NCBI GenBank assembly: GCA_949289575.1 | Contig: CASEOG010000004.1 | Coordinates: 6,053 to 70,052, forward strand | Direction: 5' to 3' | Length of the DNA stretch: 64,000 bases | DNA from: an uncultured Spirochaetales bacterium | GTDB lineage: Bacteria > Spirochaetota > Spirochaetia > JAFGXN01 | Part shown: positions 2,895 through 10,322 of the stretch, piece by piece | How positions within the stretch are numbered: position 1 is the first letter of the stretch | Layout: the number at the start of each line of letters is the position of its first letter | Notes under the pieces: generated by a model | Seen by the model: the letters and a program-made list of their open reading frames with translations, nothing else | Databases searched by the model: none | What the model was told of the DNA's origin: nothing | Translations under genes and position numbers: made by a program

Positions 2895-2924
2895 TTGACT
2901 TTCCGTTTTATTTTCGGATATAGT
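2895..2924 (+). promoter_or_regulatory. sigma70-like promoter for the marR/efflux operon
   Basis: TTGACT (2895-2900), 18-bp spacer, TATAGT (2919-2924), about 40 bp upstream of the marR ATG. Confidence 0.4.
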
Positions 2925-2934
2925 GATTGTAAAG

Positions 2935-2945
2935 TAAGTTAACTT
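2935..2945. promoter_or_regulatory. palindrome TAAGTTAACTT, candidate MarR operator (copy 1)
   Basis: Perfect palindrome AAGTTAACTT between the predicted -10 and the marR RBS. The same 11-12-mer recurs at 3475-3486. Confidence 0.45.
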
Positions 2946-2964
2946 TTTCGAGGGGTATAAGAAT

Positions 2965-3459
2965 ATGAAAAATCATGTTTCGCGAGAAGTCCTTCTTGAA
3001 TTTTTGAAGGCACTTGAGAAAATGAAAGGGTTTCCCCGCCTTATTAACGGAAAAATCAACGGGTTAAAGCATTCGGAAGTTTCCCTTATTTTTCTTATCG
3101 GTGAGTTAAGAGAAAAAAACCGGAAGGTTTTTGCCTCCGATTTATCCTCTGTTCTGCTTGTTTCGCGGGCAGCGGTGACCCCGACCATTCAGTTTCTGGG
3201 GAAGCACGGCTTTTTACGGCGGGAGACCGAAAATTCGGATGCGAGAAAGGCCGCACTTTATCTGACCGAAAAAGGAGAGCAGGCACTTCAGGCTGCCAAA
3301 GATTATCATTACCGGTTTTTCTCGCAGTTTGCCGAATCAATCGGAATGGAACGAGTTGTCGACCTGACGCAGCTGTTGAATCTTTTTTACGAATTTTTTT
3401 CTGCGGAGTTAAATACAAAAGAGAATGTAACCTTCCGCGGAAAAAATTGTTCTTGTTAA
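2965..3459 (+). CDS. MarR family transcriptional regulator
   Basis: 164 aa. Winged-helix core ...SDLSSVLLVSRAAVTPTIQFLGKHGFLRRETENSDARKAALYLTEKG... matches the MarR pattern. RBS GAGGGG upstream of the ATG. Confidence 0.8.
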   Translation: MKNHVSREVLLEFLKALEKMKGFPRLINGKINGLKHSEVSLIFLIGELREKNRKVFASDLSSVLLVSRAAVTPTIQFLGKHGFLRRETENSDARKAALYLTEKGEQALQAAKDYHYRFFSQFAESIGMERVVDLTQLLNLFYEFFSAELNTKENVTFRGKNCSC

Positions 3460-3474
3460 AAACAAATCGTTAAT

Positions 3475-3486
3475 TAAGTTAACTTA
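3475..3486. promoter_or_regulatory. palindrome TAAGTTAACTTA, candidate MarR operator (copy 2) in the 45-bp marR-tolC spacer
   Basis: Identical core AAGTTAACTT to the site at 2936-2945. It sits immediately upstream of the outer-membrane factor gene RBS. Confidence 0.45.
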
Positions 3487-3504
3487 CAGAAAGAAGGAGA
3501 GATA

Positions 3505-4920
3505 ATGAAAAACAAACTTTATGTTGTTTCTTTTTTGCTTTTCTTTTCGACAGCGATTTTTGCCGAGTCCTACGAGCTTTCGCCCGATGACGCGGTTAAT
3601 ATTGCGTTGAAAAACAATCTGGAATTGAAAACATCGGAGATCAACTTAAAAACAAAGCTCAGAAACAAAAAACAGGTCTATAACCAGCTGGTTCCTTCGC
3701 TTTCGGCCGGTGTTTCGGTCAGTCGTTCCAATCTGAACCCGGGTGAGACTTACAAAAAAATGTTTTCATCCGGAAGCGGAACGGGCGGAGCTTCTCCGAT
3801 TCCTTCATCCGTTTATCCCGACTGGAGTGCGACCTTTCAGCTGAACGGTACTTTTGCGTTGAACGGAGCCTTTTTTACGGCGATTGAAACGGTCAGAAAC
3901 GATTACACAGCCGGTTTGATTTCCTATGAAGATGCCAAGGCTTCTTTGGCGAAAAGCATCAAACAGGCCTATTTCGATCTGGTTTATCTCGAAGAGAACG
4001 TTAAACTTCTGCAGGAGAGTCTCGATCTTGCCGAAAAACGTTATCTTCAGGCACAGAGAAATTACAACAGCGGTCTTGTTCCCGATGTCGACCTGCTGCA
4101 GGCGCAGGTCTCGATGGAAAATGTCCGGCCTCAGCTTTTGCAGGCTCAAAACAATTACGATACGGCCGTCATGCAGTTTAAAATTAATTTGGGACTGGAC
4201 CTTGAAGACACCGTTTCTCTCGACAGCGGGGCATTGGACAGTGCCGATGCCTTGCAGATCGAACTGGATGCCGCCAGACTTTCGAACGAATATTTAAACG
4301 AACGCTATGATATTCAGACAATCCGTGCGAATATCGATCTCCTGGAATCATCCAAAAAATCGACAATGGCAGCCGCTATGTCTCCGACGTTTACACTTTC
4401 GGCAGGTTATCTTCCCCGTATCGGTATCTTCGGGTCCGACGTAGCCGATGCGGATAAAAATGCACAGTATAAAGACTGGCTTGATTCCGGCAACGTGTCG
4501 TTCGGACTTTCCATTCCGATTGATACACTGATTCCGGGAACTTCTACATATACAAAAACGGCCGAAATTCAGGATTCGATCGACAGTATGCAGGTATCAC
4601 TGGAAAATGCGATCCGGTTCGCCGATCTGGAAATCAAATCGATTGTGATGAATATCGAGAATGCCAGAGAACAGTTGGAGGTTTATAAATCTTCCGTTAA
4701 TCTGGCGCAAACGGTCTATAACCGATATTCCGACGGTTATCGATTGGGAACGGTCGAGATTTTGGATTTTGAAAATGTCGAAAATCAGCTCAATCAGGCA
4801 CGGTTGAATTTAGTCAGCGGAAAAGTGACGCTGGCGAAGGCGCTGATGGATTTGGAATACGCTTTGAATCGCAGTTTAAGCGAAATCAGAGAAAACGATA
4901 TTGAGGAGATTGAACAATGA
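3505..4920 (+). CDS. TolC-family outer membrane efflux protein
   Basis: 471 aa. Signal peptide MKNKLYVVSFLLFFSTAIFA. Two OEP-type repeats with coiled-coil segments (LQAQRNYNSGLVPDVDLLQAQ...; LAQTVYNRYSDGYRLGTVEILDFENVENQLNQAR). Confidence 0.8.
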   Translation: MKNKLYVVSFLLFFSTAIFAESYELSPDDAVNIALKNNLELKTSEINLKTKLRNKKQVYNQLVPSLSAGVSVSRSNLNPGETYKKMFSSGSGTGGASPIPSSVYPDWSATFQLNGTFALNGAFFTAIETVRNDYTAGLISYEDAKASLAKSIKQAYFDLVYLEENVKLLQESLDLAEKRYLQAQRNYNSGLVPDVDLLQAQVSMENVRPQLLQAQNNYDTAVMQFKINLGLDLEDTVSLDSGALDSADALQIELDAARLSNEYLNERYDIQTIRANIDLLESSKKSTMAAAMSPTFTLSAGYLPRIGIFGSDVADADKNAQYKDWLDSGNVSFGLSIPIDTLIPGTSTYTKTAEIQDSIDSMQVSLENAIRFADLEIKSIVMNIENAREQLEVYKSSVNLAQTVYNRYSDGYRLGTVEILDFENVENQLNQARLNLVSGKVTLAKALMDLEYALNRSLSEIRENDIEEIEQ

Positions 4921-5939
4921 AAAAGATTTTCATTCCGGCGGCCTTCGCTTTGGCCGGTCTTTTGATTTTGAGCGGATGCAAAAAAGAACAGGCGCAGGAA
5001 GGTGAAACCGTTCAAATTTATGCGGTACGGACTGCTCCTGTTACCGCCGGCGAAATTCAGGATTATATCAAACTTTCCGGTGAAATCATTACGAAAATTA
5101 ATGTCGATGCTTATGCCGATGTTTCTTACGGACGGATTCGGCAGCTGCAGGTTGACGTCGGCGATTATGTCCGCCGTAATCAGGTTATCGCCTATGTTGA
5201 CCCGTCGACTCCGGGAACGGTGTATAATCTGAGCCCCGTTGTGGCTCCGATTTCCGGTTACATTACTCACCGAAACGGACAAATCGGTTCAACGGTGACT
5301 TCGGCGACGGCCATCTACCGTATCGGCGACCTGACTCAGCTGCGGATGCTGACAAGCACTCCGGAGCGTTATGTTTCCAAAATTTACGGCAATCAAAAGG
5401 CTGAAATCACGTTGGAAGCTTTTCCGGGAAAGATCGTAACAGCTCGGGTTGCCGAAATCAGTCCTGTTTTGGATACGGTCAGCCGGACAATGGATGTTTG
5501 GCTGGAGTTTACTTCATCTATCGAAGGATTTAAACCGGGAATGTTCGGAACCGTTAAACTTTTCACCGATTACAAAGACAATATCATTAAATTGCCGGTT
5601 GATACGGTCGTTACACGGTTTAATGAAAATTTCGTGTTTGTTCTTTCCGACGAGGCGGTTGAGATTGATAATCCCGATTACATCAGCGAAAGCGAAACGC
5701 CGGGCATTCCTCAGAAAATCATGCAGCCGACAGTAGAACGGCGCTTGGTGGAGCAGGGAATTCGGATTGACGGAACTGTTGAAATCACAAGCGGTTTGAC
5801 ACTTGACGACATTGTTGTTATTGAAGGACAGGGACAGTTGGACGACGGCGTTTTGGTTCGCATTATTAATGAAGATGAAGCGGCCGAAGGCAAAGAGGAA
5901 GTCGTCGAAACGGAAATTGTTGAAGAAGTTGCGGAGTAA
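4917..5939 (+). CDS. efflux RND transporter periplasmic adaptor subunit (membrane fusion protein)
   Basis: 340 aa. Lipoprotein signal (LILSGC). HlyD/AcrA-like layout with biotinyl-lipoyl-like, beta-barrel and MP domains. ATGA overlap with the upstream gene. Confidence 0.8.
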   Translation: MKKIFIPAAFALAGLLILSGCKKEQAQEGETVQIYAVRTAPVTAGEIQDYIKLSGEIITKINVDAYADVSYGRIRQLQVDVGDYVRRNQVIAYVDPSTPGTVYNLSPVVAPISGYITHRNGQIGSTVTSATAIYRIGDLTQLRMLTSTPERYVSKIYGNQKAEITLEAFPGKIVTARVAEISPVLDTVSRTMDVWLEFTSSIEGFKPGMFGTVKLFTDYKDNIIKLPVDTVVTRFNENFVFVLSDEAVEIDNPDYISESETPGIPQKIMQPTVERRLVEQGIRIDGTVEITSGLTLDDIVVIEGQGQLDDGVLVRIINEDEAAEGKEEVVETEIVEEVAE

Positions 5940-5944
5940 AAACT

Positions 5945-8900
5945 ATGATAGCGAAAACGGTTGTTAATAAGCCGGTAACGATTCTGGTGCTCTTTGTCCT
6001 GATTTTGGGCATCGGCGCTTACGTCTCTTCCGGTTTGGATATCGACCTCTACCCCGAAATGGATCCGCCCGTTCTGTTGGTTTTTACCGAGTATGACGGC
6101 GCCGGTCCCGAGCAGGTTGAGGAGCATGTAACCCGTATTCTGGAAGGTAACCTTACCAACGTTACGAATATTAAAGAGATTCGTTCGATATCGCAACGCG
6201 ATCAGAGTATGGTTATTTTGGAATTTGAATGGGGAGAGGATTTGGCGGAAGCGGCGGCCGACGCCCGCGACAAAATCGAATTTGTGACGGGAATGCTGCC
6301 GGATGAGGCGGAGAGTCCGCAGCTGCTGAAATTTGACCCATCGATGCAGCCGATTGTTTATCTGACGCTGATCGGAAATAAAAATGAAATTGAAATGTAC
6401 GAGTTGGCGGACGATATTGTCGTTCCTCGTCTGGAGCAGATTTCCGGCGTTGCATCGGCCAGCATCTCAGGTTTGACCGAGCCGATTGTTCGTATTGAAG
6501 CGGATCAGAACCGCCTCGATGCTTTCGGATTGACGTTGACGGGTGCCGCCAACGGTCTTTTCAATAAAATTTCCACACAGAACACCAACACCTCCGGCGG
6601 TGAAATTGACGACGGTAAAAAAGCGTATCTGGTAAAAACAACCGGCGAGTATGCGTCGTTAGAGGAGATTGCCGACACGGTCGTTTCCGTTACATCAACG
6701 GGCAACATGGTCCGCCTCTCCGATTTGGCTGAAGTCAAAATGGGGCAGGAAGATCTTTCGCAGATTGTTACGATTGACGGGCAGAGGTCGATGTCGATTC
6801 CTGTCCGCAAACAGAGCGGCGGAAACAGTGTGGCGGTCGCTGATTCGGTTTTGGCTCGCGTCGATGAAATCAACCGCGATCTGCCGGCCGGTGTCAGACT
6901 CGAAGTTCTGTATGACAGTACGAAGATGATTCGTTCCGCCATTGATTCGGTTGTGGAAAACCTCTTTTCCGGTATGGCGCTGGCGATGGCGGTTCTTTTC
7001 CTCTTTTTGCGGGTCATTAAAAGTACGCTGATTATCGGTTTGTCGATTCCGATTTCGTTGCTGATCACGATGACGTGTATGTATTTTGCGGGATTGACGC
7101 TGAACATGCTGACGATGACCGGATTGGTTCTCGGTTTGGGTATGATCGTCGACTCGTCCATCGTTGTTTTGGAAAACGTCTTCTCATACCGTGAAAAAGG
7201 CGCGAAGCACAAAACGGCCGCCATCTTAGGCGCTACCGAGATGATAGGGGCTATCACAGGTTCGACACTGACGACGGTCTGCGTCTTCATTCCGGTTATC
7301 ATGTTCCGGAGCGAGTTGGAGTTCCTCGGAGTTTTGACCGGCGATTTGGCATTTACAATTGTCATCGCGCTGATGTCTTCGCTTTTTGTCGCCGTCACTC
7401 TGGTTCCGGTTTTGTGCAGTACTTATCTGAAACTGACACCGCGTTCTCAGAATCCGATCCGCATCCGCTGGCTGGCGAAGGTTGACGATTGGTTTGCTGC
7501 CGGTTTGGACAAACTCGATTCCGGGTACCGCGCATTGCTGAAGCGATGTCTGGATAAACGCTGGATTGTTGTCGGCGTTGTCTTCCTCTTCTTTGTGGCA
7601 TCGATTATGATTATTCCTTATTTGGGATTCGACTTTATGCCGCCGAGTTCGGACGACTCAGTCACTTTGGAAATGACGCTTCCCGAAGGAACCCGCGTTG
7701 AAACGACGATGGAAAATTTGGAGGCGCTGAAGCTGATTGTTGATAAAGAGGTGACCGGAACCGATCGGATCGTTTACACAGCCGGTTCGAGCAACGGTGT
7801 GTCGGCGGCTGAAACCAATGTCGGAACGATTCAGTTTATTCTGCCGGAATTTGACGAACGGACAACGACAGTCGATGATATCAAAGCGATTATGCGGCCG
7901 CATTTTTACAAATTCCCCGACGCCATTTTTTCGTTTACTGAACGGTCGATGGGCGGCAGCAGCCACGATATCGACATCGTTATCAAAACCGACGATTTGG
8001 ATAAAGGAAAACGTATCGGTTTGGAAATCATCGATTTATTGAAAGAGCATGTTCCCGATGTTCTTGAACCGGATATCGATATGAAGGACGGTCTTCCGCA
8101 GGCAGAAATCATCATCAATCGTCAGAAAGCGTATGCGTTGGGAATCGATATGTACAGCGCCGGCCGCGAAATTTTGGCTTCCGTCGACGGTATTCAGTGC
8201 GGTTATTACCGTACCGGCGGCGACGAGTATGAAATCCATCTGATGTTCCGAGAAGAAGACCGTGCCAATTTGGTTGATTTGGAAACCATTACCGTTTCCA
8301 ACAGTAGTTCGCAGAAGATTCCCGTTGCCAGTTTCGCAACTGTTGAGGTGACTGAAGGTCCGGTGACCATCAACCGTGAGGATCAAATCCGTGTCATTCA
8401 CATCGAAGCCGATATGTCCGACAATACGTCGCTTTCGGAAGTGACCTCGCAGATTAAGGCGGTTATCGATCGTTATCTGATTCTTGACGACGATGTCATT
8501 ATTACTTACGGCGGCGATTACGAAGATATGCAGAACATCGGTATGAAGCTCATTGCCATCGTTTTGATTGCTCTGGCGTTGGTTTTCGGCGTTATGGCGA
8601 GTCAGTTCGAAGACCTTCTGAATCCGTTCATCATCTTTCTTTCAATGTTTACGATGAGTATCGGTGTTGTCGGCGTTTATCTGATTACAGGTCAGGCGAT
8701 GAGTACCTTTTCGATTATGGGCGTCGTTATGTTGCTGGGAATGGTTGTCAATAACGGTATCGTTTTGGTTGACTACACCAATCTGCTGGTCAGCCGCGGA
8801 ATGCCGATTTACGAAGCGTGCATTGCCGCCGGAGGAAGCCGTTTGCGTCCGGTTCTGATGACCACACTGACGACGATTCTCGGTATGTATCCGCTTGCGG

Positions 8901-9139
8901 TTTCTGAAGGCGAAGGATCGACGCTGATTCAGCCGATCGGATTGACGATTTTGGGCGGAATGACGACAAACACCATTATGACGCTGGTTTTGGTTCCTTG
9001 TTTGTATTATATCTTTAATAAAACCCGTTACGAAAAGCGGCAGCAGCGCGAAAAAGCCAGACGCCAGAGAGAATTGGAAAACCGCCGTCTGATTGAAGAG
9101 CGCAGAAAGGAAAAGGAGGCGGCTCGTGAAACGAATTGA
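5945..9139 (+). CDS. efflux RND transporter permease (AcrB/AcrD/HAE family)
   Basis: 1064 aa. 12-TM RND topology with two large periplasmic loops. Conserved RND TM4 region (GLVLGLGMIVDSSIVVLENV). Arg/Glu-rich charged C-terminal tail. Confidence 0.9.
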   Translation: MIAKTVVNKPVTILVLFVLILGIGAYVSSGLDIDLYPEMDPPVLLVFTEYDGAGPEQVEEHVTRILEGNLTNVTNIKEIRSISQRDQSMVILEFEWGEDLAEAAADARDKIEFVTGMLPDEAESPQLLKFDPSMQPIVYLTLIGNKNEIEMYELADDIVVPRLEQISGVASASISGLTEPIVRIEADQNRLDAFGLTLTGAANGLFNKISTQNTNTSGGEIDDGKKAYLVKTTGEYASLEEIADTVVSVTSTGNMVRLSDLAEVKMGQEDLSQIVTIDGQRSMSIPVRKQSGGNSVAVADSVLARVDEINRDLPAGVRLEVLYDSTKMIRSAIDSVVENLFSGMALAMAVLFLFLRVIKSTLIIGLSIPISLLITMTCMYFAGLTLNMLTMTGLVLGLGMIVDSSIVVLENVFSYREKGAKHKTAAILGATEMIGAITGSTLTTVCVFIPVIMFRSELEFLGVLTGDLAFTIVIALMSSLFVAVTLVPVLCSTYLKLTPRSQNPIRIRWLAKVDDWFAAGLDKLDSGYRALLKRCLDKRWIVVGVVFLFFVASIMIIPYLGFDFMPPSSDDSVTLEMTLPEGTRVETTMENLEALKLIVDKEVTGTDRIVYTAGSSNGVSAAETNVGTIQFILPEFDERTTTVDDIKAIMRPHFYKFPDAIFSFTERSMGGSSHDIDIVIKTDDLDKGKRIGLEIIDLLKEHVPDVLEPDIDMKDGLPQAEIIINRQKAYALGIDMYSAGREILASVDGIQCGYYRTGGDEYEIHLMFREEDRANLVDLETITVSNSSSQKIPVASFATVEVTEGPVTINREDQIRVIHIEADMSDNTSLSEVTSQIKAVIDRYLILDDDVIITYGGDYEDMQNIGMKLIAIVLIALALVFGVMASQFEDLLNPFIIFLSMFTMSIGVVGVYLITGQAMSTFSIMGVVMLLGMVVNNGIVLVDYTNLLVSRGMPIYEACIAAGGSRLRPVLMTTLTTILGMYPLAVSEGEGSTLIQPIGLTILGGMTTNTIMTLVLVPCLYYIFNKTRYEKRQQREKARRQRELENRRLIEERRKEKEAARETN

Positions 9140-9413
9140 CATCATCTGCAATAACTCCATTTTTGAAGATGTGCAGGAAATTCTTTTGGAATTGCAGGTT
9201 AAAGCGTACACGAAAATCGAAAACGTCCACGGCGTCGGAACAGAAGGACAAAAGTGGGGAGACGCCGTCTGGCCGCAGGAGAACTTTATTTTGACAATTT
9301 ATTGTCCGATCGATGAAGTTTCCAAAATTGTCGATAACTTTCGTGATTTGAAAACCCGTTTTCCGACCGAAGGACTCAAGTTGTTTCTTTCGGATGCTGA
9401 AATGCTTTTATAG
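9126..9413 (+). CDS. small P-II-like (DUF3240/P-II fold) protein, translationally coupled to the RND permease
   Basis: GTG at 9126 preceded by AGGAGG (9114-9119). The start lies inside the last 14 nt of the RND gene. The sequence VKRIDIICNNSIFEDVQEILLELQVKAYTKIENVHGVGTEG follows the P-II beta-alpha-beta pattern. Confidence 0.55.
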   Translation: MKRIDIICNNSIFEDVQEILLELQVKAYTKIENVHGVGTEGQKWGDAVWPQENFILTIYCPIDEVSKIVDNFRDLKTRFPTEGLKLFLSDAEMLL

Positions 9414-9421
9414 GAGAGAGA

Positions 9422-10150
9422 ATGCATAATTCGATTTTGTTCGTTGCTCCCGATTCGGAAAAGCGGCAGCAACTGTTTAAAGCTTTATGGGGCGCCGGAT
9501 TTTCGGTACGCTGTTTTTCGAATCCGAACGACGTGCTGAATTCGGTATGGAATGATCCGCCGTCTCTGATTCTGATTCAAAATCAGGCAGAGACGTTCGA
9601 TTCCGTTCATTTCGTATGCGAAATCAGAAAAATATCGACGGTACAGATTGTTTTAATGCTTTCCGATTTGGAAGAGTGCGGAGCCGCCGAAGCATTGCAG
9701 GCCGGAGCCGATTCTCTTTTACCGTGGAAAATTGCACCGTCTCTTTTTCTCGAGTGGATTAAAGCTCTGTTTCGCCGGATTTCTTATTATCAGAACGGCA
9801 ATGAGGAAGGCCGTATCTTCTTTCGGGGTTTTGTTTTTCATGAGAAGGGACGTTATCTGGAATATCATCAGCAGAAAATCAGGATGGCCGATAAAGAATT
9901 CGATGTTTTGCAGGTCCTTTTGAAAAATGCCGGGAAACAGTTGAGCTCCAAATATATATATTCTCAGGTGTGGGGCGAAGTGTTCGGAGATATTTCGACG
10001 GTAGGTGTTCATATCAAGCGAATCAAACTGAAGCTTGCCCAATATGAAACCTATCCCTTTATTTCCAATATTTATAAAGCCGGATATGTGTTTGATAAAA
10101 AATGTCTGGATACGGGAATCCCCGATCCTTCGGAAAAAGAATTTCGTTAA
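9422..10150 (+). CDS. atypical OmpR-family response regulator (degenerate receiver lacking the phospho-acceptor Asp, plus winged-helix DNA-binding domain)
   Basis: 242 aa. The C-terminal trans_reg_C signature is present (VWGE...TVGVHIKRIKLKL...AGYVF). The N-terminal receiver-like fold has LILIQNQ where D-containing LxxDxxMP is expected and only a single acidic residue in the beta1 loop. Confidence 0.65.
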   Translation: MHNSILFVAPDSEKRQQLFKALWGAGFSVRCFSNPNDVLNSVWNDPPSLILIQNQAETFDSVHFVCEIRKISTVQIVLMLSDLEECGAAEALQAGADSLLPWKIAPSLFLEWIKALFRRISYYQNGNEEGRIFFRGFVFHEKGRYLEYHQQKIRMADKEFDVLQVLLKNAGKQLSSKYIYSQVWGEVFGDISTVGVHIKRIKLKLAQYETYPFISNIYKAGYVFDKKCLDTGIPDPSEKEFR

Positions 10151-10273
10151 ATTCATCCGAATCACTTGTCATCAACCGTTTTTTGTGTTAAAGCATAGTT
10201 ATACGGAGGTGCGTTATGAAAAAACTTTTTTTCTTTCCTCTCCTGTTCTCCCGGTAACGGGTTATTGATATTT

Positions 10274-10307
10274 AAGAGAGGCTTCGGCCTCTTCTTTTCT
10301 TTTTTTT
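10274..10307 (+). terminator. rho-independent terminator-like hairpin between the regulator gene and glyA
   Basis: AAGAGAGGC-ttcg-GCCTCTT stem followed by CTTTTCTTTTTTTT. It ends 1 nt before the glyA RBS AAGGAG. Confidence 0.5.
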
Positions 10308-10322
10308 AAAAGGAGCGTAAAC

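Follow-up and report, generated by a model that had tools for sequence, protein, structure and literature searches.

The window analyzed here, a stretch of 64,000 nucleotides (nt) from an uncultured gut Spirochaetia bacterium (contig CASEOG010000004.1), carries on its plus strand an operon of six genes that encode, in this order, a MarR-family regulator, an outer-membrane channel, a periplasmic adaptor, an RND permease, a small P-II-like protein, and an OmpR-type regulator whose receiver domain lacks the phospho-acceptor aspartate (Asp-less, for short). The last two genes are the subject of this work. The small gene falls, as an ordinary member, within the curated PG0541 family, the regulator is a new lineage of the known Asp-less class, and their combination is, so far as the compared sequences indicate, a clade-specific extension of the PG0541-type operon, with nothing to suggest a different mode of action. 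Throughout, W stands for this 64-kb window, L-numbers for the compared loci, P-numbers for the compared proteins, and "the clade" for the loci that share the Asp-less regulator. The genes of the operon and the translation signals of the last two, with product lengths in amino acids (aa), are as follows.

2965..3459, plus strand: MarR-family regulator gene, the first of the operon (Pfam MarR, 26.4 bits, cutoff 24.6)
3505..4920, plus strand: TolC-like outer-membrane efflux protein (Pfam OEP, 159.7 bits)
4917..5939, plus strand: periplasmic adaptor (MFP; HlyD_D23, 82 bits; TIGR01730, 126 bits), overlapping the preceding gene by 4 nt
5945..9139, plus strand: RND permease of the multidrug type (ACR_tran, 759 bits over residues 2-1024 of 1064)
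9114..9119, plus strand: AGGAGG ribosome-binding site of the small gene, within the RND coding sequence, 6 nt before the GTG
9126..9413, plus strand: PG0541-family P-II-like gene, 95 aa, GTG start, 14-nt overlap with the RND gene
9412..9416, plus strand: AGGAG ribosome-binding site for the regulator, which shares bases with the TAG stop codon of the preceding gene; the junction is kept in relatives
9422..10150, plus strand: OmpR/PhoB-type regulator with an Asp-less pseudo-receiver, 242 aa (Trans_reg_C, 59.5 bits)

An initial annotation, made from the letters of the window, had placed a GTG start preceded by AGGAGG in the last 14 nt of the permease gene and had read from it a product of 95 aa, and both calls stand (9126-9128 and 9114-9119; open reading frame 9126-9413). 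The start is backed by 18 homologues, all of them 95 aa long and beginning with MK[RK]I, as well as by an equal overlap in six related loci, the alternative being a TTG upstream at 9093. In five relatives, the ribosome-binding site of the small gene keeps a purine-rich GGAG core, while the start codon is GTG, ATG, or TTG. The gap between the P-II-like gene and the regulator gene, given as nine bp, is actually 8 nt (9414-9421).

By its profile matches and its predicted structure, the small protein is a genuine PG0541-family protein with a P-II fold. Against the NCBIfam model NF045581 (PG0541 family transporter-associated protein), it scores 95.2 bits (cutoff 45), the match spanning residues 2-88 of the protein and positions 1-89 of the 91 in the model, and against the Pfam P-II profile PF00543, it scores 35.5 bits (cutoff 25; profile positions 1-76 of 102). 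The AlphaFold2 model, built with 19 homologues (mean predicted local distance difference test score, pLDDT, 79.6), comprises strand 2-9, helix 10-22, strand 28-31, a low-confidence segment at 36-44, strand 53-60, helix 62-78, and strand 85-90, that is, a beta-alpha-beta-(long loop)-beta-alpha-beta arrangement in ferredoxin-like order, with the loop between strands 2 and 3. When this model was compared with the PDB using Foldseek, the top 50 matches were all P-II or P-II-like chains, the best of them Thiomonas CPII, GlnK, SbtB, and PotN (E ~1e-5, template modeling (TM) score ~0.7); a sequence search of solved structures yielded marginal CPII matches only (E 0.017). The beta-alpha-beta pattern proposed in the initial annotation is, thus, borne out by the Pfam profile, the model, and the structural matches alike, and the label attached to it, "DUF3240-like", has to give way to NF045581: the protein has no Pfam match to DUF3240 (PF11582) at E<=1 and should not be filed there.

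Within the PG0541 family, conservation is highest in the loop, with the motif GxGxxGxxxGDxVWPxxN. Among 60 diverse members, the invariant or near-invariant residues are T29, G36, G38, G45, W49, P50, N53, and G83, six of which lie in the loop or at its base, giving the extended motif YT..V.G.G..G...GD.VWP..N.

The second protein is, judging from alignments and a structural model, a true aspartate-less pseudo-receiver regulator. Its assignment to the OmpR family, as initially made, is upheld by an intact winged helix (Trans_reg_C, 59.5 bits, cutoff 26.2, residues 151-224); the receiver, at 21.9 bits against Pfam Response_reg, falls under the cutoff of 30.2. The catalytic positions, assigned by alignment with BaeR, PhoB, OmpR, and CheY, are occupied in the window and in the other clade members as follows.

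Acidic pair (DD): A9 and P10; the same in other clade members
Phospho-acceptor Asp (CheY D57): Q53; R in one relative (P0002)
Thr/Ser position: L80; I or V in other clade members
Switch Tyr position: L99; I in one relative (P0006)
Lys position: W102; the same in other clade members

All five catalytic residues are replaced in 7/7 clade members. The missing phospho-acceptor, recognized earlier from the string LILIQNQ, corresponds to Gln53 at the Asp position in the alignment with PhoB, OmpR, CheY, and BaeR, and the acidic pocket described as degenerate has A9-P10 in place of the acidic pair. The nearby Ser81, displaced by one position from the Thr site, varies within the clade; A9, P10, N54, P101, and W102 are invariant in 7/7 members. 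With the phospho-acceptor Asp, the acidic pair, the Thr/Ser, and the Lys all missing, this is not a canonical response regulator, and since all five phosphotransfer residues are gone, it should not be switchable by a histidine kinase; none of the genes called in the operon or in its conserved flanks encodes a histidine kinase. The AlphaFold2 model (pLDDT 81) has a normal receiver, with five strands alternating with five helices over residues 4-124, and a normal winged helix. The effector domain superposes on those of SaeR, YycF, and PhoB at target-normalized TM scores of 0.84-0.87, and the fold matches include KdpE, PrrA, and RpaA as well as the atypical CosR, RitR, HP1043, and GlnR. Both domains of the regulator are under purifying selection, with ratios of nonsynonymous to synonymous substitution rates (dN/dS) of 0.06-0.19 in the receiver and 0.02-0.03 in the DNA-binding domain, at synonymous sites that are near saturation.

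The homologues of this regulator in a set of 5.8 billion proteins form only six clusters, at 54-97% identity, followed by ordinary regulators at ~26%, and a scan of metagenome contigs with the clade alignment added no independent contexts, its sole match being an unrelated regulator (L026, 27% identity). It shares with the atypical OmpR/PhoB regulators (HP1043/HsrA, ChxR, RitR, actinobacterial GlnR, NblR, CosR) the combination of a receiver and a winged helix, the loss of the phospho-acceptor Asp, and the lack of a partner kinase. However, it is at most about 25% identical to any of them, forming its own small clade, replaces five catalytic positions (by A, P, Q, L, and W) where they replace one or two, and has a gene that closes an efflux operon. 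It agrees with the definition of an Asp-less receiver as a recognizable receiver without the phosphorylation-site Asp (PMC12632262, a 2025 perspective in J Bacteriol). Aspartate-less proteins (Maule 2015) account for about 2% of OmpR-type regulators (PMC4395418), and the regulator adds one further lineage to this fraction that works without phosphorylation.

All members of the clade come from metagenome-derived, uncultured Spirochaetia, and every locus examined has the same gene order and tight junctions, the 8-nt spacing of the P-II-like and regulator genes being kept across 54-97% regulator identity. All these loci occupy one chromosomal position, between a reductase gene and glyA, and because they share it, the adjacency of the two genes counts as a single evolutionary event in one ancestor. 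Contexts outside the clade were found by looking up contigs that encode PG0541-family proteins. In four lineages, the small gene is the last one, following the RND permease gene with a 4-nt overlap; the fifth context is of a different make.

Two related spirochaete-like groups: 49-53% identity, 4-nt overlap
Spirochaetales metagenome-assembled genome: 4-nt overlap
Kryptonia-like bacteria with a TetR regulator: 4-nt overlap
Fifth context, with an FHA-domain adaptor: small gene 11 nt past the RND gene

No OmpR-type gene lies 3' of the PG0541 gene in any of these five contexts, and the synteny comparison suggested in the initial annotation does not support the functional pairing proposed there. 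The pairing of a P-II-like protein with the regulator appears specific to the clade and does not appear to represent a general system. In the nearest relatives beyond the clade (L014:7747-8682 and L021:7032-7967), the P-II-like gene is followed not by a regulator gene but by one for a transporter of the Mem_trans/SBF family, that is, of the auxin-efflux/bile-acid carrier type. The fifth context (L025:568-11000) encodes an adaptor with two FHA domains, an RND permease, the P-II-like protein, a second (split) RND permease, and a STAS-domain protein, an arrangement that hints at phospho-signaling inputs to such pumps elsewhere.

The permease is the more constant companion. A scan of 1.84 billion representative proteins recovered 313 PG0541-family representatives, several of which form the C-terminal part of a fusion with an RND permease. 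In one of these, P0091 (1142 aa), a full-length ACR_tran domain and a linker of ~30 residues precede the PG0541 domain; P0067 and P0105 are partial sequences of like fusions. Because some members are fused in this way, the pump, rather than the regulator, is the conserved partner of PG0541. A degenerate DNA pattern for the loop motif, run over genome contigs, gave a single, probably random, actinobacterial match (L013).

The recent history of the locus points in the same direction. A block of ~4.7 kb (W ~4750-9450) is 98-100% identical in DNA to L001, against 67-82% for the background genes; it reaches from within the outer-membrane gene (its last ~170 nt) through the adaptor, permease, and P-II-like genes and ~30 nt into the regulator gene. 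In protein identity matrices, GlyA, NusA, the outer-membrane protein, and the regulator place W with L005, and the adaptor, the permease, and the P-II-like protein place it with L001/L008. The mosaic indicates a recent homologous replacement of an adaptor-permease-P-II cassette between species-level lineages. An assembly chimera as the source of the block was considered and rejected on contig counts: the exact P-II sequence of the window occurs in 271 contigs, the window regulator in 26, and the L001-type regulator in 208. The 3' breakpoint of the cassette falls at the boundary of the P-II-like and regulator genes, at the start of the latter, and the resident regulator now stands beside a P-II allele with only 69% identity to its counterpart in the nearest relative. 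The swap, therefore, ties the P-II-like protein to the pump and speaks against allele-specific coadaptation of this protein with the regulator.

Among the known systems close to the window operon is that of the PG0541 prototype, the last gene of P. gingivalis PG0538-PG0541. The small protein scores far over the family cutoff and, at 95 aa, has the usual length (~90-97 aa), and its gene follows those for the outer-membrane channel, the adaptor, and the RND permease, overlapping the last of these. The operon differs in having one further gene, that of the Asp-less regulator, and in its overlap, which spans 14 nt and has GTG as the start codon, where a 4-nt ATGA is usual. A review table lists the P. 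gingivalis products as TolC, adaptor, RND, and "transporter-associated protein" (PMC12094164).

A functional precedent is offered by the P-II-family proteins GlnK and SbtB, which plug or lock the trimeric transporters AmtB and SbtA. The small protein resembles them in its predicted fold, with a long loop at the position of the T-loop, and in the linkage of its gene to that of a trimeric transporter; SbtB and the carboxysome-associated CPII are among its best structural matches. It differs from them in sequence (14-21% identity) and in that the nucleotide B-loop and the C-terminal arginines are not recognizably kept, and its partner would be an RND exporter, so that the comparison is one of function and not a claim of GlnB/GlnK membership. 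To our knowledge, no cytoplasmic protein regulator has been established for any RND efflux pump. The PG0541 family, being conserved, sometimes fused to the permease and exchanged together with it, is a good candidate for one, and its role at RND pumps is a family-wide question, not peculiar to the organism of the window.

Two other kinds of systems invite comparison. "PII-NG" genes beside czcCBA heavy-metal RND pumps in Proteobacteria were reported in 2009 (Sant'Anna et al., as cited in PMC7726332). The likeness lies in the presence of a P-II-domain gene in an RND pump operon, and the function of PII-NG is also only inferred. However, in Geobacter, the gene in question (GSU2134) is the first of the operon (PMC7726332), whereas the P-II-like gene of the window is downstream of the pump, and the pumps concerned are metal exporters, whereas that of the window is multidrug-like, the two families being compared here by description only. 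In BaeSR-MdtABCD, CusRS-CusCFBA, and AdeRS-AdeABC, as in the window, a regulator of the OmpR family is encoded beside RND pump genes, and BaeR is the best sequence match of the window regulator among solved structures (51 bits). Unlike these, the window regulator has neither a kinase gene nor a phosphorylatable Asp, and it appears to be cotranscribed 3' of the pump instead of forming a separate regulator-kinase pair.

The control signals of the operon are the following, with the palindromes given without strand.

2895..2924, plus strand: promoter-like site TTGACT-18-TATAGT upstream of marR, agreeing with the consensus at 10 of 12 positions, the best match of the region
2934..2947: candidate MarR operator, palindrome GTAAGTTAACTT(TT), directly 3' of the -10 box
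3474..3487: candidate MarR operator, the palindrome repeated, TTAAGTTAACTTAC, in the spacer that separates marR from the outer-membrane gene
10276..10308, plus strand: intrinsic terminator GAGAGGCTTCGGCCTCTT followed by a T run, stem 10276-10293, in the glyA leader

The -35 box of the promoter-like site and the AT-rich block that flanks it are kept in relatives, and this site is likely to be the operon promoter. Directly 5' of the -35 box, at 2868-2888, lies an AT-rich palindrome, AATTTTTTGAAAAATT, kept in W, L001, and L005, which could be an UP element or the binding site of a second regulator. The core of the candidate MarR operator, TAAGTTAACTT, occurs twice in the window, the second time at 3475-3485, at a chance expectation of ~0.7, and the palindrome GTAAGTTAACTTAC is restricted in the window to 2934-2947 and 3474-3487. 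The exact sequence AAGTTAACTT is not kept in relatives, which have GTTAAC-type variants at the equivalent places instead, the gap between marR and the outer-membrane gene containing GTTAAC...GTTAAC or TTGTTAA...TTAACAA. The pair of palindromes fits a MarR operator, so that the pump would already have a local repressor. Beyond its Pfam match, the product of the first gene has only weak MarR-type matches in NCBIfam. The marR gene is present in L001, L005, and L008. In L011 (2233-2367) and, at the same position, in L012, it has shrunk to an open reading frame of 44 aa, with the pump, P-II-like, and Asp-less regulator genes retained.

Taken together, these data suggest the following scenario. Bound to the two palindromes, MarR would keep the operon repressed until released by an inducer, and marR through the regulator gene would be transcribed as a single message; the operon structure is read from the conserved junctions and from the position of the terminator at 10276-10293, which is invariant in six lineages and is the first convincing one past the regulator. 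The overlapping start and stop signals, through translational coupling, would hold the P-II-like protein in proportion to the permease. RND permeases are trimers, as are AmtB and SbtA. According to a published review, P-II-family control seems to be restricted to transporters that function as trimers (PMC10710835). By analogy with GlnK-AmtB and SbtB-SbtA, a trimer of the P-II-like protein would dock, via its conserved loop, on the cytoplasmic face of the permease or on its charged C-terminal tail and, once docked, tune pump activity in response to a cytoplasmic ligand. The tail is a 40-residue segment rich in Lys, Arg, and Glu, NKTRYEKRQQREKARRQRELENRRLIEERRKEKEAARETN (RND residues 1025-1064, window 9020-9136), that extends past the Pfam domain on the cytoplasmic side and where the P-II-like protein might dock or be tethered. 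The regulator is probably what is left of a two-component system linked to the pump and would act without phosphorylation. How active it is would depend chiefly on how much of it the operon produces, or on some ligand, and it would feed back on the operon or on other targets.

We hold with moderate confidence to this account as a whole, in which the P-II-like protein acts on the trimeric pump and the regulator, an orphan factor that needs no phosphorylation, is encoded on the pump transcript, and several observations weigh against it. RND permeases expose little cytoplasmic surface. We found no functional study of any PG0541-type protein in the literature searched, and as no experiment on these proteins was found there, docking on the permease is pure analogy. 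In the hhalign comparison with E. coli GlnB, only GlnB residues 1-77 were aligned, with a probability of 29%, and the B-loop (TGxxGDGKIF) and the C-terminal arginines of GlnB fall outside the alignment. For this reason, nucleotide binding is not to be assumed despite the P-II-like fold, and it may have been lost in the small protein. At the place equivalent to the B-loop, the PG0541 family has FPxEG[IL]KxF. The fusions with the permease, being metagenome gene calls, could in principle be frameshift artifacts, although the linker of P0091, at ~30 residues, is normal. The single transcript, in turn, is deduced from gene spacing, and upstream of the operon, no direct-repeat site of the OmpR type was identified.

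The alternatives concern the partners of the two proteins. It seems unlikely, if by no means negligible, that the regulator is unrelated to the pump, being an independent factor for the glyA-nusA region or for distant genes that simply rides on the operon transcript. Such a role would suit its restriction to the clade, its constant position between the pump genes and glyA, its agreement with the tree of the housekeeping genes and not with that of the pump cassette, and its retention in L011/L012 despite the loss of marR. However, the regulator gene is tightly coupled in translation to the pump genes, with no promoter-like site in the 8-nt gap, and glyA has its own conserved promoter and leader. 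OmpR-type regulators that adjoin RND pumps commonly control them, as BaeR, CusR, and AdeR do, and it is BaeR that the window regulator matches best, though weakly, among the solved structures.

The initial annotation raised the possibility of a switch composed of the two proteins; in this model, the P-II-like protein would bind the Asp-less regulator and control its DNA binding, so that a sensed small molecule would switch pump transcription without phosphorylation. The independence from phosphorylation has been retained, given the lost catalytic residues; the pairing as a switch of the pump is disfavored by the comparative evidence, and we consider it decidedly improbable. In its favor, the stop codon of the first gene overlaps the ribosome-binding site of the second, 8 nt separating the two, and every clade member has this junction, even where regulator identity is as low as 54%; a regulator without a kinase needs some other input; and P-II proteins are known to bind transcription factors or their cofactors, as in GlnK-TnrA of Bacillus and PII-PipX-NtcA of cyanobacteria. 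However, the regulator is missing from all other PG0541 contexts examined, the conserved adjacency comes down to one event, the recombination breakpoint runs between the two genes and has brought in a divergent P-II allele, and a MarR repressor already serves the operon. For direct contact of the two proteins in the clade, adjacency is the sole evidence. A combined version, in which the P-II-like protein would be shared between the RND permease and the regulator, in the way GlnK is between AmtB and TnrA, is an analogy to which we would attach a small probability at best. If true, it would mean that pump load or energy state is relayed straight to transcription, through an efflux relay of transporter, P-II protein, and transcription factor that evolved in a spirochaete clade by recruitment of a kinase-less OmpR-type protein.

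Extremely doubtful is a reading that makes the P-II-like protein a sensor of metals or a metal chaperone in the cytoplasm, comparable to CutA1 or to "PII-NG" beside czc pumps, and the pump an exporter of metal cations. The reported clustering of P-II-domain genes with czcCBA-type RND pumps, GSU2134 included, would be in keeping with it (Sant'Anna et al. 2009, as cited in PMC7726332). However, the permease scores 632 bits (NF033617) and 504 bits against models of the multidrug type, versus 389 bits against CusA/CzcA. The local regulator is of the MarR type, and such regulators usually sense organic ligands. In the close clade, the small protein has one invariant Cys and one invariant His (C8 and H35), neither of which is conserved across the wider family. 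Finally, the notion that the regulator is a decaying, nonfunctional two-component remnant, which the loss of all five catalytic residues and the subthreshold receiver might suggest, can be dismissed as hardly credible, having been largely refuted by the selection analysis, in that the reading frame is intact in every lineage, dN/dS is low in both domains, and the replacement residues A9, P10, N54, P101, and W102 are themselves clade-invariant.

Some features of the flanks deserve mention. Upstream of the operon, on the opposite strand, lies a ribonucleotide reductase gene, and downstream of the regulator follow glyA, rimP, nusA, infB, rbfA, truB, ribF, rpsO, and pnp. In the divergent promoter region of the reductase gene, at ~2784-2818, there is an inverted repeat, ATAGTGT ... 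ACACTATAT, that is kept in relatives and resembles an NrdR box. The glyA leader (10151-10322) is strongly conserved in six lineages. An Rfam search of the spacer between the regulator gene and glyA gave no meaningful match. The leader contains a promoter-like TTGTCA-17-TAAAGC, a 13-codon mini-open reading frame at 10216-10257, a Shine-Dalgarno GGAGG that pairs with a downstream CCTCC, and a small hairpin with two compensatory pairs, in addition to the invariant terminator at 10276-10293, and it may be an undescribed attenuator for glyA.

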